In this document: piece after piece, positions 11,338 to 64,000 of the stretch
Position numbering within the stretch: the first letter of the stretch is position 1
Layout of the letters: every line of letters begins with the position of its first letter
DNA from: Terriglobia bacterium
GTDB taxonomy: Bacteria > Acidobacteriota > Polarisedimenticolia > Polarisedimenticolales > JAIQFR01
DNA length: 64,000 nucleotides
Reading direction: 5' to 3'
NCBI GenBank assembly: GCA_963748015.1
Contig: CAVVHE010000008.1
Span: 670,070-734,069 of the forward strand
The notes under the pieces: model-generated
Told to the model about the DNA's origin: nothing
Seen by the model: only the letters and a program-made list of their open reading frames with translations
The model's database searches: none
Program-made: the position numbers and the translations under genes

Positions 11338-11349
11338 TTCGGCTATGCG

Positions 11350-13478: not shown

Positions 13479-13506
13479 CCTCCGTCCGCAACCGCGTGCC
13501 GGCGCT

Positions 13507-13857: not shown

Positions 13858-13892
13858 GCCGAGACCGAGGACGGCAGGGGGCACGAGGGGAT

Positions 13893-14486
13893 CTAGCGGG
13901 TGCCGGCGGCGGCGGCGGCGCGGCCGGCCTCGAAGGCGTCGAGGTTGACCTTGCGCACCTTGGCCGGAACCAGGGCCCCGATCGCTTCCCGCCAGGCGTC
14001 CTCGCCGAAGTCGAGGTGCCGCGAGAGGGCGCCGATCATCACGACGTTGACCACGCGCACGTTCCCGAGATGCGTCGCGATCTCGAGAGCGGGGACCAGG
14101 TCGAGGCGCGGAAACGTGGCCCGGAGCTTCCCGTCGAGGTCCTCGGGCCACACGGACTGTCCCGTGGTGACGGTGACGGGGCGGATCTCCTGCTCGTTCA
14201 CCACGGCGAAGCCGCCCGGCTTGAGCTCGTGGGAGAACCGCAGCGCCTCGACCTTCTCGAACGACACGAGGAAGTCCGAGGTGCCCGTGGCGATCAGCGG
14301 GGAGGGAACGCGGTCGCCGATCCGGACCTGGCCGACGACGCTCCCGCCGCGCTGGGCCATCCCGTGGACCTCGCTCTTCTTGACGTCCTTCCCGCGGAGT
14401 AGGGCCACCTTGCAGAGGATCTCGCCCGCGAGGAGGATCCCCTGGCCGCCGACGCCCACCAGGGACACGTTGAGGATCGCGCTCAT
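13893..14486 (-). CDS. iorB: Indolepyruvate:ferredoxin oxidoreductase beta subunit (2-oxoacid:Fd oxidoreductase gamma-type)
   Basis: MSAILNVSLVGVGGQGILLAGEIL...VHGMAQRGGSV. ~197 aa. 4-nt overlap with the upstream alpha subunit. Confidence 0.85.
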   Translation of the reverse strand: MSAILNVSLVGVGGQGILLAGEILCKVALLRGKDVKKSEVHGMAQRGGSVVGQVRIGDRVPSPLIATGTSDFLVSFEKVEALRFSHELKPGGFAVVNEQEIRPVTVTTGQSVWPEDLDGKLRATFPRLDLVPALEIATHLGNVRVVNVVMIGALSRHLDFGEDAWREAIGALVPAKVRKVNLDAFEAGRAAAAAGTR

Positions 14487-16267
14487 GACGGCACCTTCTC
14501 GCTGACCGCCTCGAGGCGGCAGACCTGCACGCACATGCCGCAGCCCACGCAGAGCACGTCGTTGATCCGGACCTTGTGCTTCCCGGTCGCCTCGGCGACC
14601 GCGTCGGACGTCTCCATCGCGGGACAGCCGAGGCGGAGGCACGCGCCGCATCCCGAGCACTTGTCCGGCTCGATCTCGTACCGCTCCTCGATCTGGATCC
14701 GCGCCCCCAGGACGCAGGCCCGGCGGCTGACCACGACGGACGGCTCGGGGGTGTCCAGCTCCTCCTTGAGGGCCTGATAGGTCGCCTCGAGGTCGTACGG
14801 GTCCACGACGCGGACCCGCTTGACACCGAGGCCGTGCGCGACGTCCTCGATCTTCGTCTCGGGGGCCTCGGCGCCCATCAGCGTCTTGCCGGTTCCGGGA
14901 TGCTGCTGGTGGCCGGTCATCGCCGTCGTGCGGTTGTCGAGCACCACCACCGTCCCGTGGCTGTTGTTGTAGACCATGTTCAGGAGGCCGGTGATGCCGG
15001 AATGGAAGAAGGTGCTGTCGCCGATCACCGAGGCGATCCGGCCGCGCTGGCCGGCCTTCTCCATCCCGTGCGCGTTCGTCACGCTCGCCCCCATGCAGAC
15101 GATCGTGTCCATCGCGTCCAGCGGGGCGAAGGCGCCGAGCGAGTAGCAGCCGATGTCGCCGGTCACGATCGCGCGCAAACGGTGCAATGCGTAGAACACG
15201 CCGCGATGCGAGCAGCCCGGGCAGAGGACCGGCGGCCGCGCGGGGAGGCCGGACATCGGCGCCGGCAGGGGGGAGGGCTCGCGCCCCGCGACCTCGGCCG
15301 CGAGGTCGGCCAGCCGGTCCGGGTTGAGCTCGCCGATACGGAGCGAGTGCCGGGGCTTCTCGACGCGGATGCCGAGACCGACGATCTGCTCCTCGAGGTA
15401 GGCGTCCCCTTCCTCGACGACGTAGAGCTTCTCGACCGAGGCGGCGAACTCGCGCAGCAGGCGCTCGGGGAGCGGATGGGTCATGCCGAGCTTCAGGATC
15501 GAAGCGCCCGGAAAGGCCTCCCTCGCGTAGCCGTACCCGATGCCCGAGGTCACGATCCCGACCTTGTCGCCGCGCTCGATCTTCTGGAAGGCGCTGCGCT
15601 CCGCGTACTCCGCCAGCCGGTGGAGCTTCTCCTCGAGGCGGACCCTCATCACCTTCGCGTACATCGGCACGGGAATGGTCTTCGAGATGTCCTTCGTGTA
15701 ATTGCGGTCGCCGCGGGGCTTCCGCTCGAACGCGCCGAGGTCCACGACGCCGGAGGAGTGCGAGACGCGGGTCGTCGTCCGGACGAGCACCGGGACCTCG
15801 AACTCCTCGGAGAGATCGAGGGCGGTCCGGACCATGTCGTAGCAGTCCTGGCTGTCGGACGGCTCGAACATCGGCATCTTGCCGAACCGGGCGACGTGCC
15901 GGTTGTCCTGCTCGTTCTGCGAGCTGTGCATGCCGGGGTCGTCGGCCGTCACGACGACCATCCCGCCGTTCGCGCCGATGTAGGCGAAGGTCATGAGCGG
16001 ATCCATCGCGACGTTGAGCCCGACGTGCTTCATCGCGGTGAGGCACCGGGCGCCGGCGAACGAGGCCCCGATGACCACTTCCATCCCGACCTTCTCGTTG
16101 ACCGCCCACTCGCAGTAGATCTCCTTGAACTTCGCGACGTTCTCGAGGATCTCGGTGCTCGGCGTTCCGGGGTAGGCGGAGGCGACCTCGACGCCGCCGG
16201 CGAATGCCGCATGGGCGATGGCCTCGTTGCCGGAGAGGACCTTTCGGCTGGTGGTGGTGTCCGACAT
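14483..16267 (-). CDS. iorA: Indolepyruvate:ferredoxin oxidoreductase alpha subunit
   Basis: Start at MSDTTTSRKVLSGNEAIAHAA. TPP-binding region (GDSTFFHSG). Two C-terminal ferredoxin-type clusters (CSGCGACLRLGCP, CVGCGMCVQVC). The longer ORF to 16405 is not supported. Confidence 0.9.
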   Translation of the reverse strand: MSDTTTSRKVLSGNEAIAHAAFAGGVEVASAYPGTPSTEILENVAKFKEIYCEWAVNEKVGMEVVIGASFAGARCLTAMKHVGLNVAMDPLMTFAYIGANGGMVVVTADDPGMHSSQNEQDNRHVARFGKMPMFEPSDSQDCYDMVRTALDLSEEFEVPVLVRTTTRVSHSSGVVDLGAFERKPRGDRNYTKDISKTIPVPMYAKVMRVRLEEKLHRLAEYAERSAFQKIERGDKVGIVTSGIGYGYAREAFPGASILKLGMTHPLPERLLREFAASVEKLYVVEEGDAYLEEQIVGLGIRVEKPRHSLRIGELNPDRLADLAAEVAGREPSPLPAPMSGLPARPPVLCPGCSHRGVFYALHRLRAIVTGDIGCYSLGAFAPLDAMDTIVCMGASVTNAHGMEKAGQRGRIASVIGDSTFFHSGITGLLNMVYNNSHGTVVVLDNRTTAMTGHQQHPGTGKTLMGAEAPETKIEDVAHGLGVKRVRVVDPYDLEATYQALKEELDTPEPSVVVSRRACVLGARIQIEERYEIEPDKCSGCGACLRLGCPAMETSDAVAEATGKHKVRINDVLCVGCGMCVQVCRLEAVSEKVPS

Positions 16268-16400
16268 GGGCGTTCCTTCATCGGTGGGCCCGGGTGGCCC
16301 CGGGCGGAGTGAGGCCCATCGTAGCAGAGGGTCGGGGGAAGAAACAGGGCGCCGGCGGGCCGCGCGGACGCGGGAAGGGGAGGAGGTGGCGGGAGTGAAG

Positions 16401-16443
16401 AACAAAGAAAACCCCGGGCGCCGGACCGATCCGGCACCCGGGG
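16401..16443 (-). terminator. Rho-independent terminator
   Basis: On the minus strand: CCCCGGGTGCCGGA-TCGG-TCCGGCGCCCGGGG followed by TTTTCTTTGTT, 20 nt downstream of the stop of 16464..16913. Confidence 0.8.
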
Positions 16444-26261: not shown

Positions 26262-27965
26262 CTAGCGTCCCGCCCGAGGCGTGGGCTGGCGGCGGAACGC
26301 GGCGAGCAGGTAGAACCGGTCCGGGTAGGCGTGGTGGAAGACCCGCTCGGCGCCGAGGCTCCGCGCGAGGTCGTCGATCCACGGCTCGCCGGGTTCAGCG
26401 GGGCCGGCGGGGCGCAGGTACCAGCGCCGGAACTCGGGGGACTGGAAGATCGCGTTCTCCTCGGGGGACCAGGGGAGGAGGCTCAGCCCCTCCGGGGGGC
26501 GCTCCGGGTCTCCCTTCGCCGCGAACACGAGCACGACGAGCTCGGGGCGCTTGTCGAAGAGGTAGGCCGGGTCGTACTGCTTGAGCAGGAAGGTGCCGGG
26601 GCTCTTCGCGATGTGGCGGTCCGTGAGACCCGTGATGTCCAGGACCCGCAGTTCGTCGCAGAGATAGCCCACGATACCGATGTCCATCAGCGCGACCGTG
26701 TCGCCGGGCCTCGCGGCGCCGCCGCGCAGCCATTCGGCCAGGGCGCGGTGCCCTTCCGCGTAGCCGCGGGCGCGGACCGTGACGATCCGCTCGAACGCCG
26801 CGCGCACGTCGGACTGGGTCCACGCCGCGAGCGGCACCAGCGCGACGAGGAGGAGCGGGGCCAGCCAGCGGGGCCTCGCGAGCCAGCGCCCGGCGATCCC
26901 GGCCCAGCCCATCGCGACCGCGCAGGCGGCGAGCGGAAGGACCGGCACGATGAGCCGCCAGCCGAGCATCCAGTCGGGGCCGGTGGCGAGGGGAAGGAGG
27001 GCGCCCGCCACCGCCAGGGCCAGGAGCGGCGCCGCCGCGCGGCGGCGGATGCCGCCGAAATACCAGCCCGCGATCGCGGCGGCGATTCCCACGACACCCA
27101 GGACCGGCGGAAGCGCTCCCTGGCGCACGTAGGTCCAGGAGGTCATCGAGCCGACGCCGCCCGCCTTCGCGTAGTACGTGTTCGGGAGCCACTCGCCGTC
27201 GTAGGCGATCCAGCGGAAGGCGTACTGAGCCGCCGTGGCGGAGCCTACGATCGCCCCGTCCAGGATCGGCAGCCGGAGACGTCCGACGACCTCGCGGAAG
27301 GAAGATCGAATCTCACCCGGCCCGCCGCTCCAGGCCACGGCGGCCTGTGCGACCGCCCAAGCGCCGAACAGCGCCGGTCCCTCCGGCCGCGTCAGCGCCG
27401 CCGCCGCGAAAGCCAACCCCGCGCCGCGCCACCGGCCGTCCTCTCCCGCCCGGACACCGAGCAGCACGCCTAGCCCGAGGAGCGCGGTGAAGAACGCCGT
27501 CTCGAGCCCGCTGACGGCGTTGACGGTGTAGGAGGGTGCGACCGCCAGGAGTCCCGCCGCGACGGCGCCGACCACTCCCGGGCTCGCGCCGCCTCGCTCG
27601 AAGGGCTCCACCAGCCGCCTGCAGAGCAGGAAGGAGATCGCCAGGCCGCCCGCGCCGCAGAGGAGGCCCAGCCCCTTCGCGAAAAGGGGCACGGCGCCTT
27701 CTCCCCCGAGCGCGAACACCGGCGCCATGACGAGCATCCAGAGGAGGTTCGAGTACCCCTCGACGCGCTCGCCGGGATTGAAGTAGGGCCCGCGCCCGGT
27801 GGCGAGGAAACGGCTGTACCGGAACGTGATGTACGCGTCGTCATTCACGTACCGCAGGAGCTCGGCCGCCTGCGCGAGGAATAACACGATGGCCGCGACG
27901 AGCAGGACGGCGCCGAGCCATCGCGCGGCCCCGCCTCCGCCGGCCGCCGCCTTGCGCGCCCTCAT
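26262..27965 (-). CDS. Polytopic membrane protein, GT-C-like glycosyltransferase candidate
   Basis: About 12 TM segments. N-terminal loop motif YVNDDAYITFRYSRF (acidic DD motif after TM1, as in GT-C enzymes). Soluble C-terminal ~190 aa. Its ATG overlaps the upstream sulfatase-like gene stop. Confidence 0.6.
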   Translation of the reverse strand: MRARKAAAGGGGAARWLGAVLLVAAIVLFLAQAAELLRYVNDDAYITFRYSRFLATGRGPYFNPGERVEGYSNLLWMLVMAPVFALGGEGAVPLFAKGLGLLCGAGGLAISFLLCRRLVEPFERGGASPGVVGAVAAGLLAVAPSYTVNAVSGLETAFFTALLGLGVLLGVRAGEDGRWRGAGLAFAAAALTRPEGPALFGAWAVAQAAVAWSGGPGEIRSSFREVVGRLRLPILDGAIVGSATAAQYAFRWIAYDGEWLPNTYYAKAGGVGSMTSWTYVRQGALPPVLGVVGIAAAIAGWYFGGIRRRAAAPLLALAVAGALLPLATGPDWMLGWRLIVPVLPLAACAVAMGWAGIAGRWLARPRWLAPLLLVALVPLAAWTQSDVRAAFERIVTVRARGYAEGHRALAEWLRGGAARPGDTVALMDIGIVGYLCDELRVLDITGLTDRHIAKSPGTFLLKQYDPAYLFDKRPELVVLVFAAKGDPERPPEGLSLLPWSPEENAIFQSPEFRRWYLRPAGPAEPGEPWIDDLARSLGAERVFHHAYPDRFYLLAAFRRQPTPRAGR

Positions 27966-32456: not shown

Positions 32457-34508
32457 TCAGCGCATCCGCTCGCGGGCGATTCGGTTCAGGGGATCGTCCT
32501 CGAGCACGATCGCGTAGCAGGCGCGTGCGTCGTCCTGGCGCTTCAGGCGCCAGTAAGCCGCCGCGAGGTTGTTGTAGATCTCGTAGTAGCGTCCGCCGCT
32601 CGCCGCCGCCGCGCGGGAGAGACGCGCGGCCGCCGACTCCGCCTCGCCGCGGAAGAGGTGGAAGAGGCCGAGCTGGTAGTCCTCGGTCGGGAACTTCTCC
32701 GTCCGCACGAGTCCCGCGAGCCAGGTCGCGAGCGGCCCCTCCCTCGGCGTCGCCCCGAGGCCGGGGAGGTCGCGAATCGCGGTGGCGGGGACCGGCGGCG
32801 GGACGGCGTCGCCGGGCGAAGCGCCTCCCGGCGCGTCGCGGCGCACGAAGACCGCCGCGAGCGCGTCCACGTGGGCGAGCCTCCACCTCGGATCGCGGCT
32901 GATCCGCGAGAGGAGCTCCGGGGAGATGGCGTACGGGAAGGCGGACCACCTGATGCCGTACCGGGCGACGGCGGCCTCCATCGCTTCCGTCGAGGCGAGC
33001 GTTCGCCGGTATTCGTCGAAGAACGACTCGCCCATGACCTCGAGCCGCCCGTCGATGTACACGGGATCGGGGAGGGACCACATCAGCCAGCCGCCGAAAT
33101 TCAGGTGGTTGAGCACCGGCCCGTCGAGCCCCGTTCTCCGCGCGAACTCCGCCGCGTCCAGCGGGAGCGCGATCCCGTTCCAGCCGAGGCCGAACCGGTC
33201 GGTTCGGCGGCTCGCGATGTAGTACGCATCGTGCACGACGCGCAGCGTCGTCACGAGCGCGATCGCCGCGACGCCGGCCAGGGCCGCGCGCCGGAGCCAG
33301 ATCCCGGCGCCGCGGGCGAGCTTGCGCCCCTGCCGTCCTTCCATCGCCGCCGTGAGGCCCCACGCGGTCGCGGGCAGGGTCGCAACGACGAGGAGCGGCA
33401 CGTTCCGGATCATCCTCGAGGCGAGGGCCATGAACGCCAGCCAGAGGAGGCCGCACCAGAAGCGCCTCGCTTTCAGGAGCGGCCACAGCGCGACGAGCGA
33501 CAGCGCCGCGAGCGCCCGGAACGCGAAGACCGGGACGCGCGGGTAGAAAGGGAACTGCTGGGAGAGGCCGAGGGAGAACGGCGAGACGAACTCGCCGATC
33601 GACTGCGCGAACACGTTTCCGGCCTCGAGACGCGTCGCGAGCTCGAGCGGGAAGAGCATCCCGCGCCAGCCGTAGGGGTTCAGGATCGTCACGCCCACCG
33701 AAGCGGCCGCCCACGCGAGCAGCCGGCGGTCGAAGCGCCGCTCCTTGATCGCGAGGCCGGCGACGAAGCAGCCCTCCGCGACCCAGCCGAGCACGAAGAG
33801 GCCGTGGAGGTTCGCCCAGAGGAGATGGATCGGTACGAGCAGCCAGAGGGGCGTGGGCTTGCCCAGGGCGTGGCGGTGGAGGAGGTGGAGGACGACGGCG
33901 AGAAGCAGATACGAGACCAGCTCCGGCCGCGCCTCGAAGCGCATCTCGGCCGCGAGACCGCCGAGCAGAAGGGTCGACGGGAGCGCGAGCGGCCCCGCCG
34001 GGAGGAGCTTCGCGGTGCGGAGCAGCACGCCGAAGATCGCCAGCACGAGCGCGGCGTGGAGAAGGATCAGTCCCGCCGCCCCGCCGCGCGGCGCGCCAGC
34101 GCCGCGACGACCTGGTACCCCCAGCTCGTGTCCACGTACGGCGTGGTCGCGCACGGTGAACGTGAACGGGTCGAGCCGCGGCCAGCCGCCGCCCGAGAGG
34201 ATCCGCTCGCCCGCCTTGAGATGGAACCCGATGTCGGGGCTCGCGACCTGGCGCAAAGCCAGCACGGCGAGGAGGGCGAAGATCATCCCGATCGCGACCC
34301 ATGCGAAGGCGGCGTCGCCTTGCCGCACGGATTCGCCGGCGGCCGGCCGCGGTCCGCGATCTTCTCCCGGTGCGGCGTCGCTCTCTCGTGGCTCCCTCCT
34401 CGGGCGACCGGCAGCGTGGGGAGCATAGCAGGGGCGCCTCCTGCTGGCGTCCGGGCTCGCGGGGGACCCGCTTCGGCGACCGGCGGAATCTGCTGTGATG
34501 CAAGTCAC
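32457..34508 (-). CDS. Polytopic membrane protein with periplasmic domain and C-terminal TPR-like repeats (GT-C-like candidate); possible local compensated frameshift
   Basis: GTG start next to an AT-richer promoter region. About 11 TM segments. C-terminus YYEIYNNLAAAYWRLKRQDDARACYAIVLEDDP (TPR). Residues encoded at about 34067-34142 look off-frame (see findings). Confidence 0.6.
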   Translation of the reverse strand: MTCITADSAGRRSGSPASPDASRRRPCYAPHAAGRPRREPRESDAAPGEDRGPRPAAGESVRQGDAAFAWVAIGMIFALLAVLALRQVASPDIGFHLKAGERILSGGGWPRLDPFTFTVRDHAVRGHELGVPGRRGAGAPRGGAAGLILLHAALVLAIFGVLLRTAKLLPAGPLALPSTLLLGGLAAEMRFEARPELVSYLLLAVVLHLLHRHALGKPTPLWLLVPIHLLWANLHGLFVLGWVAEGCFVAGLAIKERRFDRRLLAWAAASVGVTILNPYGWRGMLFPLELATRLEAGNVFAQSIGEFVSPFSLGLSQQFPFYPRVPVFAFRALAALSLVALWPLLKARRFWCGLLWLAFMALASRMIRNVPLLVVATLPATAWGLTAAMEGRQGRKLARGAGIWLRRAALAGVAAIALVTTLRVVHDAYYIASRRTDRFGLGWNGIALPLDAAEFARRTGLDGPVLNHLNFGGWLMWSLPDPVYIDGRLEVMGESFFDEYRRTLASTEAMEAAVARYGIRWSAFPYAISPELLSRISRDPRWRLAHVDALAAVFVRRDAPGGASPGDAVPPPVPATAIRDLPGLGATPREGPLATWLAGLVRTEKFPTEDYQLGLFHLFRGEAESAAARLSRAAAASGGRYYEIYNNLAAAYWRLKRQDDARACYAIVLEDDPLNRIARERMR

Positions 34509-43727: not shown

Positions 43728-44810
43728 TCAGAAGGTGTGGGCGCCGTGCGCACCGATGGCGAACTGGAGCTGGAGCAGGAGCTCGTCGGCGGTCTCGCCG
43801 TTGGCGTAACTGCGCCTGCGAAGCTCGCCCCGGAGGCGCGAGTACTCGCTCGGGCAGAACGTCAGCAGCGCGGCCGCCCCGCTGTCGTGCAATGAGTCGT
43901 CGTCCGCGTGCTCGGAGCGCTCGAAGCGCGCCCCGACGAGCCACCGCTTCGCGAACTGGTACTCCCCCGACAGCAGCCAGCCGGTCGCGGTCGCGCTCCC
44001 CGCCGCCAGTTCCTTCCGGCTCCCGATGAGCTCCGCGCGGACCATCGCCGACCGGTACGTCGCGGTCCGGAGCGGCTTCCACCGGAGCGTCACGTCCAGC
44101 GAGGAGAGACGGGTCTTCGAGGTCTCCGTGAGCCCATTGGGGCCGAGGCCGTAGGACAGGCCGAAGTCGAGGTTCGTCGCCTCGGTGAGGTCGCTGAAGA
44201 TCCTGTAGTGGCCGTTGTACGCCACTTCGCGCCGGCCCGGCGGCACCAGGAAGAGCTCGCCGGAGTCCCCGTTGAAGACCTGCAGGGTCGCCTCGGAGAA
44301 GACGTCGCCGGGGAGCGGGATCAGCTTCGCGACGGACAGGCCGTCCCCGATCCAGCCTTCCTCTCCCCCGAGGAGATTCGCGAGCGGGAGGGGCTCGTCG
44401 GCCCAGGGCAGGACGTGGAGGTGGAGCGTGTTGATCTTGCCGAACGTCGCGCGCATGCGCCCGACCTTCACGAGGAGGCCCCAGGGGAGCGAGGTGAAGG
44501 TGGCGTATCCTTCCTCCACGTCCACCCCCTGGTCCGAGAAGGACAGGAAGATGTCGGCTCGCGCGTACGGGTCCACGACCGCCGAGAGACCCAGCTCCAG
44601 CTCGCGCAGGCTCAATGCCGGGAGGTCCTCGGTGTCGTTGGCGCCCACCACGCCGAGAAAGTCGCCGATCAGGGAGATGCTCGGGTTGAAGTAGTTCGAG
44701 CCCTGCTGCGGCACGGCCGCCGGGGGCGGAGGCGCCTGCGGCGGGTCATCCGCGAGCGCGAGTCCCGCGGCCGTCAGCAGCAGCGCGAAGATGGGAATCC
44801 GCTTGTCCAT
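43728..44810 (-). CDS. Outer-membrane beta-barrel porin-like protein, first gene of the metal-uptake operon
   Basis: Signal peptide MDKRIPIFALLLTAAGLALA. Alternating amphipathic strands, C-terminal ...FAIGAHGAHTF (terminal Phe). 10-nt gap to the binding-protein gene. Confidence 0.6.
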   Translation of the reverse strand: MDKRIPIFALLLTAAGLALADDPPQAPPPPAAVPQQGSNYFNPSISLIGDFLGVVGANDTEDLPALSLRELELGLSAVVDPYARADIFLSFSDQGVDVEEGYATFTSLPWGLLVKVGRMRATFGKINTLHLHVLPWADEPLPLANLLGGEEGWIGDGLSVAKLIPLPGDVFSEATLQVFNGDSGELFLVPPGRREVAYNGHYRIFSDLTEATNLDFGLSYGLGPNGLTETSKTRLSSLDVTLRWKPLRTATYRSAMVRAELIGSRKELAAGSATATGWLLSGEYQFAKRWLVGARFERSEHADDDSLHDSGAAALLTFCPSEYSRLRGELRRRSYANGETADELLLQLQFAIGAHGAHTF

Positions 44811-44957
44811 CCGGATGTTCCCGCTACGAGAGGACCCGAGGGGGCGCGAATCTTCATCGGATCGCGGTCGTTGCACGATGCCGTTCTCCGGAAAAAATTG
44901 AAACTACCCCCGTGCCCATGGGCTGTCAAACGGACTGTCCCGTAGAATGGGCGGCCC

Positions 44958-54871: not shown

Positions 54872-56578
54872 ATGGAAGCACCCTGGTGCCGTTTCCGCGA
54901 CAAGGGCGTTCCCGGTACGATCGACATTCCGGACTGGACGGTCCCCGATCTCCTCGATCGCGCCGCGGAGAAGTTCGCGGACCACATTGCCCTCCAGTTC
55001 CACGTGGACGCCAAGCTCTCTCCGTCGTCCATGACCTACCGGCAGCTACACGACCAGACCCTGCGCTTCGCAACCGCGCTGTTCCAGCTCGGCGTGCGCA
55101 AGGGGGACCGGGTCGCGATCATGTTGCCGAACTGCCCGCAGTTCGTCGTGGCGTTCTTCGGGGCGCTGCGCTTAGGCGCGATCGTGGTGAACACGAACCC
55201 CCTCTACGTCTCCCGGGAGATGCGCGAGCAGTTCGAGGACTCCGCGTGCGAGACGGTCATCCTCCTCGACCAGTTCTTCCCGCGGCTCCGGGAGATCCAG
55301 GCGGCTACGCGCATCCGCCGGGTGATCGTCGTGGACGTGGCGGGCACGCTGCCGTGGCCGGCGCGCACGCTGGTGCACCTGGTGCAGCGCAAGCGCGGCG
55401 AGTACGTGAAGATCCACCGCCAGTCGGACATCTACCACTTCTCGCACCTCCTCGCGAAGTACCCCGCGAGCCCTCCGGGCGCGTCGCTTCGCCCTTCCGA
55501 CACGGCGGTCTTCCAGTACACCGGCGGGACCACGGGGGTGCCGAAGGCCGCGATGCTGACCCACCGGAACCTCGTGGCGAACGCCCTGCAGCTCGAGGCG
55601 CTCTTCGCCGGCTTCGAGCCCGGGAAGGAGGTCTTCATGGCCGCCGTCCCGTTCTTCCACGTCTACGGGATGACGACCTGCATGGTCCTCGCGACGCACC
55701 TCGGGGCGGAGATCGCGATCATCCCGAGGCCGCGCCCGGTGGAGCTCGTCATGCACGTGGTGCAGAAGCGGCGGGCGACCGTGTTCCCGGGGGTCCCGAC
55801 CCTCTACAACGCCATCAACCACCACCCCCGCGTGAACGACTTCGACCTGCGCAGCGTGAAGTTCTGCGTCAGCGGCGCGGCCCCGCTCCCCAAGGAGGTG
55901 CAGGACAGCTTCGAGAAGCTGACGGGGGGCAAGCTTGTCGAGGGATACGGCCTAACCGAGGCGTCGCCGGTCACTCACGCGAACCCGATCTACGGCATGC
56001 GGAAGGCGGGGAGCATCGGGATCCCGGTCCCCGGGGTGGACGCCAGGATCGTGGACCCCGAGACTCGCGAGCCGATGCCGCCGGGGCAGGACGGCGAGCT
56101 GGCGGTCCGCGGGCCGCAGGTCATGAAGGGGTACTGGAACCGTCCCATCGAGACCGCCTCGGCGATCGCGGACGACTGGCTCCTGACCGGGGACATCGCC
56201 CGGATGGACGAGGACGGCTACTTCTACATCGTGGACCGCAAGAAGGAGATGATCGACGTCTCCGGGTTCAAGGTCCTTCCTCGCGAGGTCGAGGAGGTGC
56301 TGTACATGCACCCGAAGGTGTTCGAGGCCGTCGCGGCGGGCGTCCCGGACCCGCACCGCGGCGAGACCGTGAAGGCGTGGGTCGTCCTCAAGGAGGGGCA
56401 GCAGGCGACCGCCGACGAGATCATCGACTTCTGCAAGCTGCACTTGGCACCCTTCAAGATCCCCCGGCACGTGGAGTTCCGCTCCGAGCTTCCCAAGACC
56501 ATGGTCGGGAAGTTCCTGCGGCGGGTGCTGGTCGAGGAAGAGAAGGCTAAGCTCGAGGGCGGCGCGAGCGTCACCTAG
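54872..56578 (+). CDS. fadD: Long-chain-fatty-acid--CoA ligase (AMP-forming acyl-CoA synthetase)
   Basis: AMP-binding motif FQYTGGTTGVPKAAMLTH. GYGLTEASP, TGDIARMDEDGYFYIVDRKK, and the C-terminal PKTMVGKFLRR. Confidence 0.9.
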   Translation: MEAPWCRFRDKGVPGTIDIPDWTVPDLLDRAAEKFADHIALQFHVDAKLSPSSMTYRQLHDQTLRFATALFQLGVRKGDRVAIMLPNCPQFVVAFFGALRLGAIVVNTNPLYVSREMREQFEDSACETVILLDQFFPRLREIQAATRIRRVIVVDVAGTLPWPARTLVHLVQRKRGEYVKIHRQSDIYHFSHLLAKYPASPPGASLRPSDTAVFQYTGGTTGVPKAAMLTHRNLVANALQLEALFAGFEPGKEVFMAAVPFFHVYGMTTCMVLATHLGAEIAIIPRPRPVELVMHVVQKRRATVFPGVPTLYNAINHHPRVNDFDLRSVKFCVSGAAPLPKEVQDSFEKLTGGKLVEGYGLTEASPVTHANPIYGMRKAGSIGIPVPGVDARIVDPETREPMPPGQDGELAVRGPQVMKGYWNRPIETASAIADDWLLTGDIARMDEDGYFYIVDRKKEMIDVSGFKVLPREVEEVLYMHPKVFEAVAAGVPDPHRGETVKAWVVLKEGQQATADEIIDFCKLHLAPFKIPRHVEFRSELPKTMVGKFLRRVLVEEEKAKLEGGASVT

Positions 56579-56695: not shown

Positions 56696-57907
56696 TCAGA
56701 ACGCGAAGTCGAGACGCAGGGTGAAGTAGTCCTCGGTGGCGTCGGGCAGGTTCGTTGCCCGGTAGCTCGTGGTGCGGTTCGAGTACTCGACGTGCAGGGC
56801 GATCTGGTCCTCGAAGTAGTAGCGGAGGCCGGCGGTGTAACGCGTGAGGGAGTCCTCGATGGAGACGTCGGGAGGGCTCACCCAGTCGTAGCGCGCGAAG
56901 CAGACGAAGTCGGTCCGCGGCTGGTAGAGGAGCTCGCCGAAGCCGCCGGAGTAGGTGGGGTCGCTCGTGGCTCCGGGCCAGAAGACCTTGCTGTCCTCGG
57001 CGTAGAGGTACTGGAGGGAGAGGTTCACCTGCCTGAAGTTGAGGCTCGCGTCGAGGCCGTAGCGCGTGAAGGTCTCCCGCGAGTCGGGTCCCTCGACGAT
57101 CCACGGACGGGCCTTACCCTGGTACGCGATCACCCCGAGCCGGTGACCGGCGGTCTGTCCCTCGCCGGCGCCGATCACGGCGTCGAACCGCGCGTAGAAG
57201 TCCGAAGGGGAGTCGTCCGACTGGCTGCTGTTCGATCCGTCGAGGATGCCCGCGGCGTAGTGAAGCCCCTTCCCTCCTCGCCCGAAGACCTCGATGCCGG
57301 TCTGCGTCTCGGAGAGCGGGATGCCGTCCGCGAACGTGTAGTCGTAGATCTCGTACGGGGAGACGGTGAGCCGGCGCTTCACGCTGAAGCCCACTAAATC
57401 CGGCTCGAACCGGCCCGCGCGGACGTTGAGCCAGCTCGAGCGGGCAAGGCGCGCGAAGACGGCGTTGGCCGACTCGAGCGTTCCTTCCTGGGGCGCGACG
57501 CCGCGGGTCCCCTCGTTGATCTGGGGCGTGTACACCGCGAAGTAGCCCACGTTCGAGCCGAGCAGGCCGGCCGAGAGGATGTCGAGCCCCTCGAGGCGGA
57601 ACTCATTGACGTCGGAGGCGTCGGAGTTGTTGAACGAGTCGTAGACGTAGCCCGCGCTGGTCCGGAGCGCGATCGGCGTGGGACTGTTCAGCACCGTGCG
57701 CTCCTCGTTCTCGCGGCCCGGGAGGCGGTAGCCGTTCTCGCGGTAGTTCGAGCCGAAATCGTTGAGCCGCGGGAAGGCGGAATGGCACATCGTGCAGTTG
57801 AACCCGTACTTCCGGGCGAACGCCGGGATGGCGCGGGATTCCCCCGGCCAGGCCACGGCGAGCAGCACCAGGGCGAGGAGCGGAACGGAGAGAGCCGCGC
57901 GCTTCAT
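56696..57907 (-). CDS. Fused mono-haem cytochrome c / outer-membrane beta-barrel protein (Cyc2-like)
   Basis: Signal peptide MKRAALSVPLLALVLLAVAWPGESRA. Then IPAFARKYGFNCTMCHSAFPRLNDFG with a single CxxCH (nt 57782-57796). ~360 aa of alternating beta-strand-like sequence ending ...FTLRLDFAF. The ATG overlaps the upstream peroxidase stop. Confidence 0.65.
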   Translation of the reverse strand: MKRAALSVPLLALVLLAVAWPGESRAIPAFARKYGFNCTMCHSAFPRLNDFGSNYRENGYRLPGRENEERTVLNSPTPIALRTSAGYVYDSFNNSDASDVNEFRLEGLDILSAGLLGSNVGYFAVYTPQINEGTRGVAPQEGTLESANAVFARLARSSWLNVRAGRFEPDLVGFSVKRRLTVSPYEIYDYTFADGIPLSETQTGIEVFGRGGKGLHYAAGILDGSNSSQSDDSPSDFYARFDAVIGAGEGQTAGHRLGVIAYQGKARPWIVEGPDSRETFTRYGLDASLNFRQVNLSLQYLYAEDSKVFWPGATSDPTYSGGFGELLYQPRTDFVCFARYDWVSPPDVSIEDSLTRYTAGLRYYFEDQIALHVEYSNRTTSYRATNLPDATEDYFTLRLDFAF

Positions 57908-58944
57908 CGTGCACCTCCCTGCGAGGGCGAGTCCTCCGGCAGTGCCGGCTTCTTGATCGCGGGCAGGGTACCGGTGAGAGCCTCCATGAACGCCACGAGA
58001 TCGGCCTTCTCGCTCGCGGTCAGCCTGAGCGGCAGCATGAGCGGGTCGAGATCGGGGTTCGCCTCCCCGCCGCGATCGTAGACCCCGACCACGTCCATGA
58101 GCGTCTTCGCCGAGCCGTCGTGGAGGTAGGGGCCGGTGAGGGCGACGTTGCGCAGCCCGGGGGTCTTGAACTTCCCGCGGTCCGCGGGATTCTTCGTGTG
58201 GGCCTCGCGGCCGAGATCGGGATTGGGCTTGCCCATCCCGACGCCGAGGTTGTGGAAGGACTGGTCGGAGAACGCCGGGCCGCTGTGGCAGGGCGTGCAG
58301 TGGGCCTTGCCGTTGAAGAGATTCATTCCCCGGACGGCGGCCGCGCTCATCGCGCTCTTCTCGCCGAGGAGGTACCGGTCGTAGGGGGACGGGCCGGAAA
58401 CGACCGTGCGCTCGAAGGCGGCGATCGCCTTGGCGATCCCGTCGGTGTCCACGTCGGTCCCGAAGACCTCCTTGAACTGGGCGCGGTAGCCGGGGATCGC
58501 GTTGAGCTTCTTCACCACGTTCTCGAGGGTCTCGCCCATCTCGATCGGGTTGTGGATCGGCCCGAGGGCCTGCTCCTCGAGGGAGCCCGCTCGGCCGTCC
58601 CAGAACTGGAATCGCATGTAGGCGGAGTCGAGGATCGTACCGGAGTTCCTCCCGCCGACCTGCCCCTTGATCCCCGTGTCGGTCGGGTCGTGGTTCGCCC
58701 ACGCGGCGTCGGGTTTGTGGCACGTGGCGCAGCTGATCGTGTTGTCCGCGGAGAGCCGCGGGTCGAAGTAGAGCTGGGCCCCGAGACGGACCTTGGCGTC
58801 GGTCTGCGGGTTGTCCGGCGGCACCGGGACGGGGGGTAGCGGGCCGTTCGAAAGGAACCCGCCCCCGGCGTGGGCCGCCGGCAACCGGGCCGCGGCGGCC
58901 AGGAGAAGCGCGGCGAGCAGGACAACCGGAACACGTCGTCGCAT
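57904..58944 (-). CDS. Di-haem cytochrome c peroxidase (CCP/MauG family)
   Basis: Signal peptide. Two CxxCH motifs (CATCH, CTPCH). FWDGRA, GPIHNPIEMG, KFKTPGLRNV, PYLHDGS blocks of bacterial CCPs. Confidence 0.9.
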   Translation of the reverse strand: MRRRVPVVLLAALLLAAAARLPAAHAGGGFLSNGPLPPVPVPPDNPQTDAKVRLGAQLYFDPRLSADNTISCATCHKPDAAWANHDPTDTGIKGQVGGRNSGTILDSAYMRFQFWDGRAGSLEEQALGPIHNPIEMGETLENVVKKLNAIPGYRAQFKEVFGTDVDTDGIAKAIAAFERTVVSGPSPYDRYLLGEKSAMSAAAVRGMNLFNGKAHCTPCHSGPAFSDQSFHNLGVGMGKPNPDLGREAHTKNPADRGKFKTPGLRNVALTGPYLHDGSAKTLMDVVGVYDRGGEANPDLDPLMLPLRLTASEKADLVAFMEALTGTLPAIKKPALPEDSPSQGGAR

Positions 58945-59095: not shown

Positions 59096-60214
59096 TCAGC
59101 CGGCGATGGGATGGAGGCCGAACAGCCTCCCGGCGAGGACTCTTCGCCGGAGGACGGGGACCCCGATGACGGCGGGCACCACGACGGGAAGAAGGGGACG
59201 AACGGCGGTCGCCGCCGCGCGCCGGATGCGCCCCGGCCTGCCGTAGCGGGCGAGGACGCGGGTCACGTAGGGGGAAAGCGTTTCGCGAGAGATGCCCCCG
59301 CCCGAGCGGAGCGCTTCGAGGATCGTCGCGGCGGCATCGAGGCCGGTCTCGATCGCGGTGCGGATACCCTCGCCGGAGACCCGCGCCGCGAAGCCTCCGG
59401 CGTCCCCCACGAGAAGCCATCGGTCTCCGGCCGTTCCTGCCGCGCCGCCCGGGTCGTAAACGCGGTACGCGTGGCCGCGGGCGCGTTCGAGGAACTTCGC
59501 ATCCAGGACTCCCCGGCGCTCGAGGCCGGCGAGCAGCCCGTTCCACCGCGACCGCACGTCGCCGTAAAAGCCTCCGATGCCGGCGTTGAGGTACTCGCCC
59601 TTGGCCACGACCCAGGCGTATCCGCGTAGGTCCGCCTGGACGATCAGCTCCATCCTCCCGGACAGCGGCCCCTTTGCCAGCGCCGGACCGATGCGAGTCT
59701 CGCTCTCGATCGCCGCGACCACGGGGTCGCTGCGCCGGAAGCCGGCCCGCCGCGCCAGCGGGCAGAAGTGGCCCCCGGCCCCGACGGCGACGGGGGCCCG
59801 CCACGTGCGACCCCCGGCCTCGGCCTCGACCCCGTCCTCGCGGAGCTCGACGCGCTCGACGCCGGCGCGCTCGACGACCGCGGCCCCGGCCGTTGCCGCC
59901 TCCCGGAGGATCCGGTGGTCGAACTCCCTGCGCAGGATGCCGAAGCTGACGGTCTCGCCGAAGTCGGTCTCCCGCGTCGTCGAGCCCGACCGCACGACGA
60001 GGCCGCGAAAGGGCTGGAGGGTCCCCTCGTAGTCCTCGGCGCGCCAGCCGAGCAGGGGAAGCACCTCGGGGGTGATCCAGCCGGCGCACGGCTTGGGGCG
60101 GGGGAACGCCGCCCGGTCGAGCAGGGCGACGGCCACCCCCGCGCGGGCCAGCTCGCGGGCGCAGGTGGCGCCGGCGGGGCCGCCGCCTACGACGAGGACG
60201 TCGGGCGAGCTCAC
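59096..60214 (-). CDS. FAD-dependent oxidoreductase of the geranylgeranyl-reductase family
   Basis: GTG start overlaps the upstream stop (GTGA). DVLVVGGGPAGATCARELARAG (dinucleotide fold), PKPCAGWI, LVGDAGGF. Confidence 0.8.
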   Translation of the reverse strand: MSSPDVLVVGGGPAGATCARELARAGVAVALLDRAAFPRPKPCAGWITPEVLPLLGWRAEDYEGTLQPFRGLVVRSGSTTRETDFGETVSFGILRREFDHRILREAATAGAAVVERAGVERVELREDGVEAEAGGRTWRAPVAVGAGGHFCPLARRAGFRRSDPVVAAIESETRIGPALAKGPLSGRMELIVQADLRGYAWVVAKGEYLNAGIGGFYGDVRSRWNGLLAGLERRGVLDAKFLERARGHAYRVYDPGGAAGTAGDRWLLVGDAGGFAARVSGEGIRTAIETGLDAAATILEALRSGGGISRETLSPYVTRVLARYGRPGRIRRAAATAVRPLLPVVVPAVIGVPVLRRRVLAGRLFGLHPIAG

Positions 60215-60645
60215 CGCGGGGACGCCCGCCTCGCGGCAAGCGCCAGCGCCCGCCGCGGGCCGAGCAGCCGGAGCGCGAGCATGGCGGCCGGCGACGGCCG
60301 CCAGTGGGCGAAGAACCCCTTGATCGCCATCACGCAAAGAAGGTCCCCCTCGATCCGCAACCGCCCGTCCGCGTACGCCCGCCCCCACTCGTCGAGGGGC
60401 GCGGCGAGGAGCTCCTCGAAGGCGCGCTCCTCGAGGCGGATCGTGGCGTCGGGCCGGGGGTCGAGGCGGCTCTCGATCGACCAGCGGTCCGGGTCGCGGA
60501 AATCGAGGCGCCACGGCTCGACCGACCCGTCCGCCTTCTCGATCGCGAACTGGAGGCACGAGCCGGTGTAGCCCGCCAGGTGCGGGTGCTCCCGGACCAC
60601 CGAGGGAAGCAGCGTCCCGAAGAACAGCCGAGCGGTCTCGCTCAT
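60211..60645 (-). CDS. SCP2 (sterol carrier protein 2)-like lipid-binding domain protein
   Basis: 144 aa. ...CLQFAIEKADGSVEPWRLDF...ATIRLEERAFEELLAAPLDEWGRAYADGRLRIEGDLLCVMAIKGFF matches the SCP2 pattern. The ATG overlaps the upstream stop (ATGA). Confidence 0.7.
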   Translation of the reverse strand: MSETARLFFGTLLPSVVREHPHLAGYTGSCLQFAIEKADGSVEPWRLDFRDPDRWSIESRLDPRPDATIRLEERAFEELLAAPLDEWGRAYADGRLRIEGDLLCVMAIKGFFAHWRPSPAAMLALRLLGPRRALALAARRASPR

Positions 60646-61544
60646 GGCTCGAGGACCATCGCGCGCCTCGTGAGCGGCCGCTCGGGGCGCGCCGAGTAGG
60701 GAACGAACGGGCGGGCGAGGATCTGGTAGACGTGGTTGTGGTTGCCGGCGAACGACTTCGCGGAGCCCGCGAGGTAGAGCTTGTAGTACCGGATCGTGGC
60801 CCGGTCCGCGATCCCTTCCGCCACGAGCTTCTCCTCGGCGGCCTCGAGGTTCCGGAGCCAGCGCTCGCAGGTGAGGGCGTAGTGGTCCGTCAGGGACTCC
60901 ACGTCGAGCACCTCGAAATCCTCCTCCTCGAGGGCCGCGACGTGGTAACCGAGCGGCTTCAGCTCGCCCACCGGGAAGATGTAGGTCTTGAGGAACTCCC
61001 AGCTCCCCGTACCGGGGAGCTTCTCCACGGGGCGCGGCGTCATGATCGAGTGGAGGAGCACGAGCCCGCCGGGCCGCGTGTACTCCCGCAGGCGGCGGAA
61101 GAACGGGGGCTTGTCCTCCACGTGCTCGCTCATGCCGATCACCGCGACCTTGTCCCAGGGCCGGTCCACGGGGAGACTCGCCCCGTCGGCCTCTACGACC
61201 TCGACGCGGCCGCCGAGACCCCGCCGTTCCACCTCGGTCCGGATGTGGCGAACTTGCTCCTCCGCGAGGTTGACCGCGGTCACGGCGCAGCCTCGCTCCT
61301 CCGCGGCGTGGAACGCGAAGTTCCCCCAGCCGCAGCCGAGGTCGAGCACTCGGTCGCCCGGCTCGAGTTCGAGCTTGCGCGCGACGAGCTCCAGCTTGTG
61401 CCTCGCCGCCTCCTCGAGCGATTCGTCCGGGCGCATGAAGTAGCAGCAGGTGTACGTGAGCGTCGGCCCGTCGAGGAACGCTCGAAAGAAGTCGTTCGAC
61501 AGCGAGTAGTGGTGGTCGAGGCCTTCCTTCAGCTTGGCGGCCAT
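60642..61544 (-). CDS. Cyclopropane-fatty-acyl-phospholipid synthase family SAM-dependent methyltransferase
   Basis: HYSLSNDFFRAFLDGPTLTYTCCYF, SAM motif VLDLGCGWG, IGMSEHV, ...HNHVYQIL, typical of the CMAS family. Confidence 0.9.
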   Translation of the reverse strand: MAAKLKEGLDHHYSLSNDFFRAFLDGPTLTYTCCYFMRPDESLEEAARHKLELVARKLELEPGDRVLDLGCGWGNFAFHAAEERGCAVTAVNLAEEQVRHIRTEVERRGLGGRVEVVEADGASLPVDRPWDKVAVIGMSEHVEDKPPFFRRLREYTRPGGLVLLHSIMTPRPVEKLPGTGSWEFLKTYIFPVGELKPLGYHVAALEEEDFEVLDVESLTDHYALTCERWLRNLEAAEEKLVAEGIADRATIRYYKLYLAGSAKSFAGNHNHVYQILARPFVPYSARPERPLTRRAMVLEP

Positions 61545-61711
61545 GACACCCTCCGACCCGGAATTGCCTCCAATCTACCACGGGACCGTCTCGCCGTTCG
61601 CGTCCTCGCGGGCCGGAGACGTCGAGCCGTGGCGCGGAGGAACGGGGCGAGGGGTTATCCTGCGGTCGCCCGGATTCGATGACGACCGGCCCCGCGCCGA
61701 GAGGAGAGACC

Positions 61712-62152
61712 ATGAAGACCGTCATCGTCGTCGTGCTGGCCTCGCTGGCCAATGCCGTGGGAGAGGTGCTCGTGAGCCAGGGGATGAAGCGCTTCGGCGA
61801 GCGCGATTGGTCGCAGCCATCGGAGTGGCTCGAGCTGCTGCTGGTGGTGTTGCGGAGCCCACGCGTCCTGGCCGGGGTGGCGTTCATGGCGGGGTTCTTC
61901 TACCTCTTCCTCGCCGCACTCACCTGGGCCGATCTGAGCTACCTGAACCCCCTGACCGCCACGACCTACGTCTTCACCGCGGCGTTCGCCCGGCTGTTCC
62001 TGGGCGAGGAGCTTTCGTGGAGACGGTGGGTCGGCACGATCATCGTCGTCGCCGGCGTCGCCCTGATCTCGCTCGACACCCCCGCCACCAAGGGGCTGTA
62101 CGGTCGCGTGGATCCGCCCTCGATGCGGCAGGGAGCATCGTCCTCTCGGTGA
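61712..62152 (+). CDS. Small EamA/DMT-like membrane protein
   Basis: GGAGAGACC-ATG. 146 aa with 4 TM segments. ...FLGEELSWRRWVGTIIVVAGVALIS (EamA-type C-terminal helix). Confidence 0.65.
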   Translation: MKTVIVVVLASLANAVGEVLVSQGMKRFGERDWSQPSEWLELLLVVLRSPRVLAGVAFMAGFFYLFLAALTWADLSYLNPLTATTYVFTAAFARLFLGEELSWRRWVGTIIVVAGVALISLDTPATKGLYGRVDPPSMRQGASSSR

Positions 62153-62554
62153 GCCCGGCGCGACTTGCCGGAGCGGCGGAAAGGGCCTGTTTTGGCTGAG
62201 AAAGCCCGCCGCATTTTTCGCCTTGATTTCGCCGTAATTTTTCGAGGTCTTGGATTGATCCAAAACGATGGATTCAATTGTGGCCAAGAAAGGGTCGGTA
62301 TGAGAGGGGAAGGAGAAGAATAGATCTGTTCAAATCGCTGACCTGTAATGATTTACTCGACAAGTGCCGATCCGATGGCGAGATGGGCAACCGGCTTGCA
62401 ACGGCGGAACCGGGGGGCAAAGCCCCTGAAAATGTGTCGGCGACCCGGGCCGGAGCTCCGCGTGCAGTTCCGCTCCGCTTGGGCGCCGCAGGAACGGAAC
62501 AGGCAAGGCCAGGAATCACCCGAAAATCGGGGAGGAAAAAGGAGGCAGCGGGTA

Positions 62555-64000
62555 ATGAGAAAGTTCGTAATGTTCGGGCTGTGCGCGATGCTGGTGGCGG
62601 CGTTCGTCGCGCCGCAAGTTCTCGCGGCTGACGACGAGGCGAAGTTCAAGTTCTCCGGCGAGGTCCGGACCCGGTTCGAGTACGTCGAGAACTACCTCGA
62701 CTTCACCAACAACAGCGACTACGACACGGGCGACAACTTCTCGTTCTGGCCCTACCGGGTGCGGCTCGCGATGGAAGGCAGCATCGCGGACAACGTGACG
62801 GTCTTCGGCGAGCTCCAGAACGCGGGCCACTTCGGGTCGAACCCCTACTACTTCCCCGGCGACGCGAGCCTCGGGCGGATCGACCCGCTCATGTACGCGT
62901 ACCCCCTCTTCACGTCGCTCCAGGACCCGGCTTTCGGGACGGGTGACTTCGGCCCGTACTCCCCCTACTCCTCGGGCCGGAACGTGAACCTCTACCAGGG
63001 CTACGTCCAGCTCGACAAGCTGTTCACCAACAACCTCTCGATCCGCGTGGGCCGCCAGGAGCACACCCTCGGCACCCAGCTCCTCCTGGGCGACAACGAG
63101 TTCTACAACGGAATCAGCTACGACGGCGCCCACATCATGTGGCACCCCGAGAAGTACAAGGTCGACGGCTTCTATTACAAGCTGAACGAGCTGTACCAGG
63201 CCTCGTCCGACGCCAACCTCTTCGGCGTGACGGGCAACTTCGACCTCGGCAAGAAGCTCGGCAACATCGACGGCTACGTGATCGTCTACCAGAACCTCGC
63301 GGACACCGAGAACGTTCCCGCCCCCTCGTGGCTGCAGTGGAACGACATGGCCCTCACGACGTACGGCGTGCGCTGGGGCCGGATGGTCAAGAACGCCGAC
63401 GACATGAAGGAAGGCGCGTTCGACTGGAACGCGGAGTTCGCGATGCAGAACGGCGACTCCACGTACTACGGTGACTACAAGTACACCTTCAAGGGAAGCA
63501 TCTTCGAGGGTTGGTTCGGCTGGAACTTCGCGACCGGCGGCGGACGCAGCCGCGTCCACGTCGGAGCCCTGATGGCGTCCGGCCAGCCCGAGGATCAGAC
63601 CTCCACCGAGACCGGCGAGGACTGGAAGGGTTTCATCCCGCTGTTCGGCAACACCTGGGCCTACAACCGCCTGGGTGACCTCGACCTGTTCGACACGACC
63701 GGCATCAACGACATCAACCTCGGCTACTGCTTCTCCAGCGGCAACGACAAGCACAACGTGATGGTGACGCTGCACTCGTTCCAGCTGGCGGAAGACATCA
63801 CGATCGGCGATCCCGCGAACGAGACCAGCAACAAGTACAACAAGCTCGGCGAGGAGATCGACGTTCGCTACACGATGAACGTCAACAAGATGACCTCGTT
63901 CAGCGCGGGTCTCGCCACCCTCATGCCCGGCGAGGCCTTCGACCAGCTTTGGAAGGAAGGCAGCTGGAACGGCGAGACCTCGACGGTCACCAGCGCCGAC
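62555..64000 (+). CDS. Outer-membrane porin of the alginate-export-like family (partial, 3' end beyond window)
   Basis: GGAGG-N10-ATG. Signal peptide MRKFVMFGLCAMLVAAFVAPQVLA. FKFSGEVRTRFEY, IRVGRQEHTLGTQLLLGDNEFYNGISYDGAHIMW. The frame is open to the window end. Codon usage is rich in AAC/TAC/TTC/AAG. Confidence 0.7.
   Translation, partial: MRKFVMFGLCAMLVAAFVAPQVLAADDEAKFKFSGEVRTRFEYVENYLDFTNNSDYDTGDNFSFWPYRVRLAMEGSIADNVTVFGELQNAGHFGSNPYYFPGDASLGRIDPLMYAYPLFTSLQDPAFGTGDFGPYSPYSSGRNVNLYQGYVQLDKLFTNNLSIRVGRQEHTLGTQLLLGDNEFYNGISYDGAHIMWHPEKYKVDGFYYKLNELYQASSDANLFGVTGNFDLGKKLGNIDGYVIVYQNLADTENVPAPSWLQWNDMALTTYGVRWGRMVKNADDMKEGAFDWNAEFAMQNGDSTYYGDYKYTFKGSIFEGWFGWNFATGGGRSRVHVGALMASGQPEDQTSTETGEDWKGFIPLFGNTWAYNRLGDLDLFDTTGINDINLGYCFSSGNDKHNVMVTLHSFQLAEDITIGDPANETSNKYNKLGEEIDVRYTMNVNKMTSFSAGLATLMPGEAFDQLWKEGSWNGETSTVTSAD

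Follow-up and report, generated by a model that had tools for sequence, protein, structure and literature searches.

The window analysed here, a 64,000-nucleotide stretch of DNA with a GC content of about 70%, holds on its minus strand, between positions 61544 and 59096, three genes joined end to end. They encode a CMAS-family S-adenosylmethionine (SAM) methyltransferase, a small protein with the sterol carrier protein 2 (SCP2) fold and a flavoprotein of the geranylgeranyl reductase (GGR) family resembling TmpA. The features of this operon, in the order of transcription, are as follows:

61544..60642, minus strand: gene of the CMAS-family SAM methyltransferase, ATG start, 300 amino acids (aa)
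60645-60642, minus strand: ATGA stop/start overlap of the methyltransferase and SCP2 genes
60645..60211, minus strand: gene of the free-standing SCP2-fold protein, ATG start, 144 aa
60214-60211, minus strand: GTGA stop/start overlap of the SCP2 and TmpA-like genes
60214..59096, minus strand: gene of the TmpA-like GGR-family flavin adenine dinucleotide (FAD) flavoprotein, GTG start, 372 aa

Both overlaps of 4 nucleotides (nt) were read directly in the sequence and lie exactly where the earlier note on this DNA, which had described three minus-strand genes joined in this way, had placed them. The ATGA overlap is taken as translational coupling of the methyltransferase and SCP2 genes. The CMAS, SCP2 and GGR-family assignments given in that note were likewise confirmed by Pfam and NCBIfam scores. 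In the reading frames of the three genes, the GC content at third codon positions (GC3) reaches 0.93 in the methyltransferase, 0.95 in the SCP2 protein and 0.90 in the flavoprotein, compared with 0.54-0.77 for the remaining frames; at a genomic GC content of 70%, this strongly indicates coding. A Shine-Dalgarno-like GGAGGG is located 5 nt upstream of the methyltransferase ATG, and the GTG start of the flavoprotein fits both the aligned N-termini of the published TmpA proteins and a 372-aa homologue (P0001). No promoter, terminator, regulatory RNA or riboswitch signals above chance were found around the operon, and no tRNA genes in the 64-kb window.

Two routes to 10-methyl fatty acids have been described, the actinomycete bfaAB and the tmpBA ("ten-methyl palmitate") operon, the latter in Desulfobacter, Desulfobacula, Marinobacter hydrocarbonoclasticus and Thiohalospira halophila (Blitzblau 2021, PMC7791843). 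The tmpBA genes were found in bacteria containing 10-methyl-16:0. TmpB is a methyltransferase similar to cyclopropane fatty acid (CFA) synthases, which formed 10-methylene fatty acids in both E. coli and yeast by methylenating Δ9-Δ11 monounsaturated C14-C18 acyl chains, with 10-methylene palmitate obtained from four of the five operons expressed in E. coli; TmpA, a putative methylene reductase, is similar to the geranylgeranyl reductases of archaea (PMC7791843). The TmpA and TmpB sequences from the supplement of that study served as references for comparison. As in tmpBA, the CMAS gene of the window lies upstream of a gene for a GGR-like flavoprotein on the same strand, the two being separated only by the 435-nt SCP2 gene. 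The published TmpB proteins carry DUF7884 at the N-terminus of a single chain of about 370-440 aa (residues 44-121 in Marinobacter TmpB), whereas the methyltransferase of the window has 300 aa and lacks DUF7884. The proposal of an undescribed, non-orthologous version of the actinobacterial pathway could not be maintained, as the operon type is tmpBA (Blitzblau 2021) and the proteins of the window are homologous to TmpA and TmpB. The idea of methylene formation followed by reduction is thus already published, and what is new at this locus is an architectural variant, the split methyltransferase partnered by an SCP2 protein. In the literature searched, we found no description of SCP2 linked to CFA synthases, nor of an SCP2-partnered split methyltransferase. 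Overall, the operon is probably of the tmpBA type, dedicated to mid-chain methyl branching of a lipid acyl chain, with a methyltransferase made of two polypeptides.

The methyltransferase matched the CMAS family (PF02353) with an E-value of 1.4e-66 and 225 bits (cut-off 27). It begins exactly at the CMAS domain and consists of the catalytic domain alone, whereby its alignment to TmpB starts only at about residue 122-146 of the latter. Full-length TmpB, BfaB and Cfa have some 100-140 further residues at the N-terminus, which Pfam assigns to DUF7884. In BLAST comparisons, its identity was 36-38% with the catalytic regions of TmpB from Marinobacter and Thiohalospira and of BfaB (37% for BfaB), and lower, at 30%, with E. 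coli Cfa. The scores with the Cfa equivalog models were below the cut-offs in all three cases: 168.9 versus 400 for PRK11705, 228.9 versus 650 for CfaB and 169.3 versus 600 for the Brucella CFA synthase. All five residues of the bicarbonate site of E. coli Cfa (C139, E239, H266, I268 and Y317) are kept in the alignment, as is the SAM motif GCGWG, and from the conservation of these two sites the methyltransferase is inferred to be catalytically competent. The NCBIfam model mycolic_MTase also matched (E-value 1.6e-38), with 132.9 bits far below its cut-off of 390. The mycobacterial CmaA, PcaA and MmaA, with about 290-300 aa, have only the CMAS domain and no N-domain, and we know of no SCP2 partner or adjacent GGR-like gene for any of them.

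The flavoprotein was 36% identical to the Marinobacter TmpA (MARHY3376) over residues 1-368 with an E-value of 9e-55 in BLAST, 36% identical to the Thiohalospira TmpA and 29% to the TmpA of Desulfobacter and Desulfobacula. NCBIfam holds no dedicated TmpA model, and the published TmpA proteins share the match profile of the window flavoprotein: with the GGR subfamily model TIGR02032 the latter scored 146.5 bits (E-value 1.3e-42), just under the cut-off of 158.8, which the Marinobacter TmpA passes (168.4) and the Desulfobacter TmpA fails (131.3). The best match of its profile in the PDB, over the full length and with an E-value of 8e-30, was 3OZ2, the digeranylgeranylglycerophospholipid reductase of Thermoplasma. 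The AF2 model (pLDDT 89.7) gave the same result in Foldseek, where 3OZ2 ranked first (TM 0.78), followed by the Sulfolobus GGR (0.74-0.76). An invariant cysteine in the motif PRxKxCAGW lines up with the GGR cysteine near the flavin, and GYxWxxxKG..LNxGxG lines up with the GGR motif YxWxFPx7-8GxG, whose proline is replaced in the window protein. By profile and modelled fold, the flavoprotein is presumed to be a methylene (C=C) reductase. The comparison with the bfaA and bfaB sequences, as suggested in the earlier note, split between the two proteins: the methyltransferase reached the identity to BfaB given above, while BLAST gave no match of the flavoprotein to the BfaA of M. smegmatis. The expectation that the reductase belongs to a family other than that of BfaA was therefore correct, and a BfaA-type identity of the flavoprotein is ruled out for lack of any similarity.

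The small protein passed the threshold of the SCP2 family (PF02036) with 41.6 bits (cut-off 21.3, E-value 1.7e-10) and remained below that of DUF7884 (PF25371), with 13 bits versus 27 and an E-value of 0.12. Foldseek placed yeast SCP2, human SCP2 and UbiJ-SCP2 at the top of the matches of its AF2 model (pLDDT 83.6), with E-values from 1e-7 to 1e-5 and TM values, on the target, of up to 0.82 for 4JGX, 1IKT and 1C44. The Pfam threshold, the fold match of the model and the nearest relatives identify it as a genuine SCP2 protein. At the same time, hhalign related it to the N-domains of TmpB (52 or 20 sequences) with a probability of 96.6-96.9% and an E-value of about 1e-10, and both share the motif (A/D)GR(L/I)x(I/V)(E/D)GDL. 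A hidden Markov model (HMM) of the SCP2 protein, run against 4,921 open reading frames (ORFs), had few matches apart from those in about 30 loci, where it recognised the N-terminal part of the full-length TmpB-like ORF lying immediately upstream of tmpA. The profile of the TmpB N-domain in turn matched the N-terminal 80-95 residues of the solved CFA synthases 7QOS and 5Z9O. These comparisons point to a remote homology of the SCP2 protein to the TmpB N-domain (DUF7884). Its residues ~115-144 (60211-60300, minus strand) form a basic two-helix C-terminal tail, WRPSPAAMLALRLLGPRRALALAARRASPR, which the window clade shares with P0134 and which is missing from P0136 and P0155-P0157, SCP2 partners of shorter length; this tail could be a membrane- or partner-docking element.

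The search of species-representative genomes with a TmpA-like profile gave 80 loci, with no relative above 44%. A CMAS gene was found on the same strand within 400 nt of the TmpA-like gene in 62 of them, and in 41 of the 45 loci with better-scoring TmpA relatives (≥140 bits). By their record labels, the loci come from metagenome-assembled genomes (MAGs) of Acidobacteriota, Planctomycetota, Nitrospirota, Gammaproteobacteria (including Marinobacter and Thiohalophilus) and Rokubacteria, as well as Binatia, Geobacteraceae, Myxococcota, KSB1 and others. The TmpBA-like pairs are frequent in MAGs labelled as Acidobacteriota (Bryobacteraceae, Acidobacteriaceae, Terriglobia and Vicinamibacteria). Low-scoring GGR relatives, such as those in Bradyrhizobium and in the loci L066, L067 and L069 labelled as Promethearchaeota or Methanosarcinales, mostly have no CMAS neighbour; among the archaeon-labelled loci L066, L067, L069 and L034 only the last one has it, and this belongs to a 'Nitrosocosmicus' MAG that is probably misbinned. 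The usual order is a full-length tmpB followed by tmpA, with a few loci showing the reverse. The three-gene order of the window recurs in relatives down to 55-58% identity, so that the synteny, whose absence from relatives would have spoken against the earlier interpretation, was indeed present. The 4-nt overlap of the methyltransferase and SCP2 genes recurs as well, in the contigs P0002, P0121 and P0130 and in the loci L085, L086 and L087/L088, where the SCP2 proteins of L085 and L086 are 27 and 33% identical to that of the window, respectively. With both the order and the overlap recurring in relatives, the three-gene arrangement is not a product of chance.

In the TmpA-like loci, a full-length TmpB never has a small SCP2 or DUF7884 gene beside it. 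Five loci (L013, L015, L031, L034 and L035), labelled as Rokubacteria, Tectomicrobia, a deltaproteobacterial MAG and the 'Nitrosocosmicus' MAG mentioned above, have a short CMAS gene beside tmpA, and in all five a separate small gene lies upstream of tmpA. Its product passes DUF7884 in L013, L015, L031 and L034, while in L035 there was no Pfam match in the scanned stretch and only a weak match to the SCP2 HMM. In the window clade, an SCP2 gene stands in place of the DUF7884 gene. Both types thus combine a short CMAS enzyme and a separate small protein beside a TmpA-like gene, but they differ in gene order and in the family of the small protein, and we found no description of the five split loci in the literature searched. 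Conversely, pairs of a short CMAS gene and an SCP2 gene with a 4-nt overlap exist without tmpA in L086, L087 and L088, with SCP2 proteins that are more distant members of the subfamily to which that of the window belongs. A membrane protein gene comes next after the pair in L086. The gene clusters compared here are arranged as follows:

L013, L015, L031, L034 and L035, about 5560-8100 in each: small protein, then TmpA-like protein, then short CMAS
L087, 2432-4401, and L088, 1222-3191: TetR, short CMAS (315 aa), SCP2 (120 aa, 4-nt overlap), FA_hydroxylase-family protein (PF04116)
L001 (Omnitrophica MAG GCA_016209275.1), 6893-16070: KASIII-like, TmpA-like, CMAS (331 aa), KASIII-like, CMAS (331 aa), hydrolase, AMP-ligase, NAD_binding_4 reductase

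Because pairs of short CMAS and SCP2 genes exist without TmpA, the SCP2 protein is regarded as the partner of the methyltransferase and not of the reductase. A role as reductase partner was considered and ruled out, as SCP2 trails the short CMAS gene where TmpA is missing, while the pairs of full-length TmpB and TmpA have no SCP2. The same observations oppose the view, expressed in the earlier note, that a dedicated lipid carrier was inserted into an otherwise complete pathway: the methyltransferase lacks DUF7884, to which the SCP2 protein is remotely homologous, and SCP2 accompanies short CMAS genes even where no TmpA is present. In L087 and L088, the gene content suggests a two-component methyltransferase with a di-iron enzyme instead of TmpA, and with it a different lipid modification. 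Where measured, identities among the methyltransferases of the window, L086 and L087 amount to 44-45%, and the three have indels in common, which are absent from the split enzymes of the DUF7884 type. This indel pattern indicates that the module of short CMAS and SCP2 is a lineage of its own and that the split occurred at least twice. Short CMAS and SCP2 might make up a previously unrecognised two-subunit lipid C-methyltransferase, reused with TmpA, with a di-iron hydroxylase-family protein or with neither. That the SCP2 protein arose when a TmpB gene simply split in two could not be established, both because this protein is nearer to canonical SCP2 than to DUF7884 and because the short methyltransferases of the window type form their own indel-defined subfamily.

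The bfaAB (tmsAB) pathway to tuberculostearic acid in Actinobacteria (Machida 2017; Blitzblau 2021) follows the same two-step logic, with methylenation of an unsaturated phospholipid acyl chain and subsequent flavin-dependent reduction. However, BfaB is a full-length enzyme, unlike the methyltransferase of the window, and BfaA, annotated as an FAD oxidase, belongs to another flavoprotein family without meaningful homology to TmpA (PMC7791843). The CFA synthases of E. coli and Lactobacillus (7QOS and 5Z9O) have the CMAS domain and all five bicarbonate-site residues in common with the window protein, and their two-domain design includes a small N-domain of the family which the SCP2 protein resembles. 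In comparison, the split in the window is a natural one, the partner scores as SCP2 instead of DUF7884, and a reductase gene is attached. The N- and C-domains of E. coli Cfa hold together when each is produced as a polypeptide of its own (Hari 2018, as cited in PMC9851988); since an artificial split is tolerated in this enzyme, a natural two-subunit enzyme is plausible.

Following the tmpBA-type reading, the pathway would proceed in two steps. [quoted passage not shown] The SCP2 protein would take over in trans the part played in cis by DUF7884 in full-length TmpB and CFA synthases, namely lipid binding or membrane docking. In the second step, the GGR-family flavoprotein with reduced FAD would convert the exomethylene C=C bond into a saturated methyl branch. 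The earlier claim of methylenation followed by reduction is reasonable and partly supported, with the reduction a putative step in every TmpA.

Several observations weigh against this reading. Neither in E. coli nor in yeast did TmpA show activity (PMC7791843), and its function as a reductase is putative throughout the family. The bicarbonate site is alike in cyclopropane-forming and methylene-forming enzymes, and since it is kept in both, the product class (methylene or cyclopropane) is not decidable from it or the rest of the sequence. Furthermore, the interaction of the SCP2 protein with the methyltransferase is a putative one. The homology between the SCP2 protein and the N-domains spans only about 50 residues of the hhalign columns, and when 1.84 billion representative proteins were searched exhaustively with an HMM, the nearest relatives of the SCP2 protein outside its own clade were canonical SCP2 domains, to which it is closer than to DUF7884. 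It may accordingly be a recruited SCP2 and not a detached N-domain. Finally, in the Omnitrophica locus L001, short CMAS genes (23% identity to the window methyltransferase) stand beside a TmpA-like gene with neither an SCP2 nor a DUF7884 partner.

The missing activity of TmpA in E. coli and yeast (PMC7791843) leads to the alternative that the methyltransferase and SCP2 modify acyl chains, with a cyclopropane, methylene or methyl-alkene product, while the flavoprotein is something other than a methylene reductase, for instance an enzyme desaturating or oxidising a methylated intermediate as in the pathways to furan fatty acids, so that the end product would not be a saturated branch. The third gene is indeed interchangeable, as seen from the FA_hydroxylase-family gene in L087/L088, and the wider superfamily of the flavoprotein includes monooxygenases and halogenases. 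We nevertheless consider this unlikely, as the best structure and profile matches, 3OZ2 and 3ATQ, are true C=C reductases and the GGR cysteine and YxWxF are kept. Moreover, Desulfobacter and Desulfobacula are strict anaerobes, and the presence of tmpBA in these organisms, which contain saturated 10-methyl-16:0, fits reduction and opposes an O2-dependent chemistry.

The substrate might also be an isoprenoid (a polyprenol, a quinone side chain, squalene or a carotenoid-like compound), with a double bond first methylated and then saturated and the SCP2 protein holding the isoprenoid in the manner of UbiJ. The GGR family normally acts on isoprenoids, the SCP2 model matched the structure of UbiJ-SCP2 among others, and the identity of the methyltransferase to the tested TmpB proteins is only 36-38%. 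However, its characterised close relatives TmpB, BfaB and Cfa all act on fatty acyl chains (PMC7791843), there are no isoprenoid biosynthesis genes nearby and the conserved neighbour of the operon is a long-chain fatty-acid CoA ligase, which makes an isoprenoid substrate distinctly improbable. A coincidental adjacency of an ordinary cyclopropane synthase, a generic SCP2 protein and a housekeeping flavoprotein, for which it might be said that the functions of the three proteins were assigned from sequence, can hardly be credited in view of the 4-nt overlaps joining all three genes, the CMAS-TmpA pairing in 62 of the 80 loci across many phyla, the three-gene order kept down to 55-58% identity and the occurrence of SCP2 or DUF7884 genes exactly where the methyltransferase has no N-domain.

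TmpBA-like pairs reach far beyond the sulfate reducers and Gammaproteobacteria of the original description, a point of relevance when 10-methyl fatty acids serve as biomarkers of particular taxa in soils and sediments. Mid-chain methyl fatty acids are found in Nitrospira, anammox bacteria and Methylomirabilis. The separation of the N-domain from the catalytic domain, having occurred at least twice in CFA-synthase-like enzymes and with a canonical-looking SCP2 as the partner in one of the lineages, supports the view of the N-domain as a lipid-handling module and offers a natural two-component system for study. These operons are also further candidates for the putative TmpA reduction.

A speculation from taxonomy and chemistry, to which we give very little chance, concerns iso-diabolic acid and the branched, membrane-spanning glycerol dialkyl glycerol tetraethers (brGDGTs): enzymes of this operon type could be the system that adds their C5 and C6 methyl groups. 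It is proposed because the host is probably an acidobacterium and because TmpBA-like pairs are frequent in Acidobacteriota-labelled MAGs. In the literature checked on C5/C6 methylation of brGDGTs, the enzymes of this step are not named, and we found no link of TmpBA to it. If true, the 5-methyl and 6-methyl isomers, on which the brGDGT proxies for temperature and pH are built, would arise from an attack of SAM at either carbon of a Δ5 double bond and subsequent reduction.

The surroundings of the operon are of mixed content. Directly downstream and on the same strand (56699-58944, minus strand) lie a di-haem cytochrome c peroxidase (PF03150, E-value 6e-60) and then a porin-like outer-membrane protein with a weak match to Porin_O_P. 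The acyl-CoA ligase gene, of the long-chain FadD type, is convergent with the operon (54872-56578, plus strand), and its orthologue lies near the operon in related metagenome contigs, which may simply reflect the relatedness of these contigs. The best named relative of this ligase, with 82% identity, comes from a MAG labelled 'Acidobacteriia bacterium', which is the sole pointer to the taxonomy of the host. On the other side, a half-size membrane protein of the EamA/DMT family (61679-62152, plus strand, 157 aa) is divergent from the methyltransferase gene, and contig P0121, at 95% identity, has this neighbour as well. The gene of an outer-membrane porin of the Alginate_exp family (62348-64000, plus strand) runs past the end of the window and lies in a stretch with a GC content of 62%, compared to about 70% for the window. 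Elsewhere, three long ORFs on the minus strand (26265-27965, 32460-34508 and 43731-44876) have GC3 values of at least 0.90, a strong sign of coding, and are without a Pfam match at E ≤ 1e-5. Other genes of the window encode an epimerase/NAD_binding_4 'male sterility' protein of 548 aa resembling fatty acyl reductases (1597-3240, plus strand), the hydrogenase maturation carbamoyltransferase HypF (6327-8696, plus strand) and a protein similar to 2-oxoacid:ferredoxin oxidoreductases with 4Fe-4S domains (14486-16405, minus strand).

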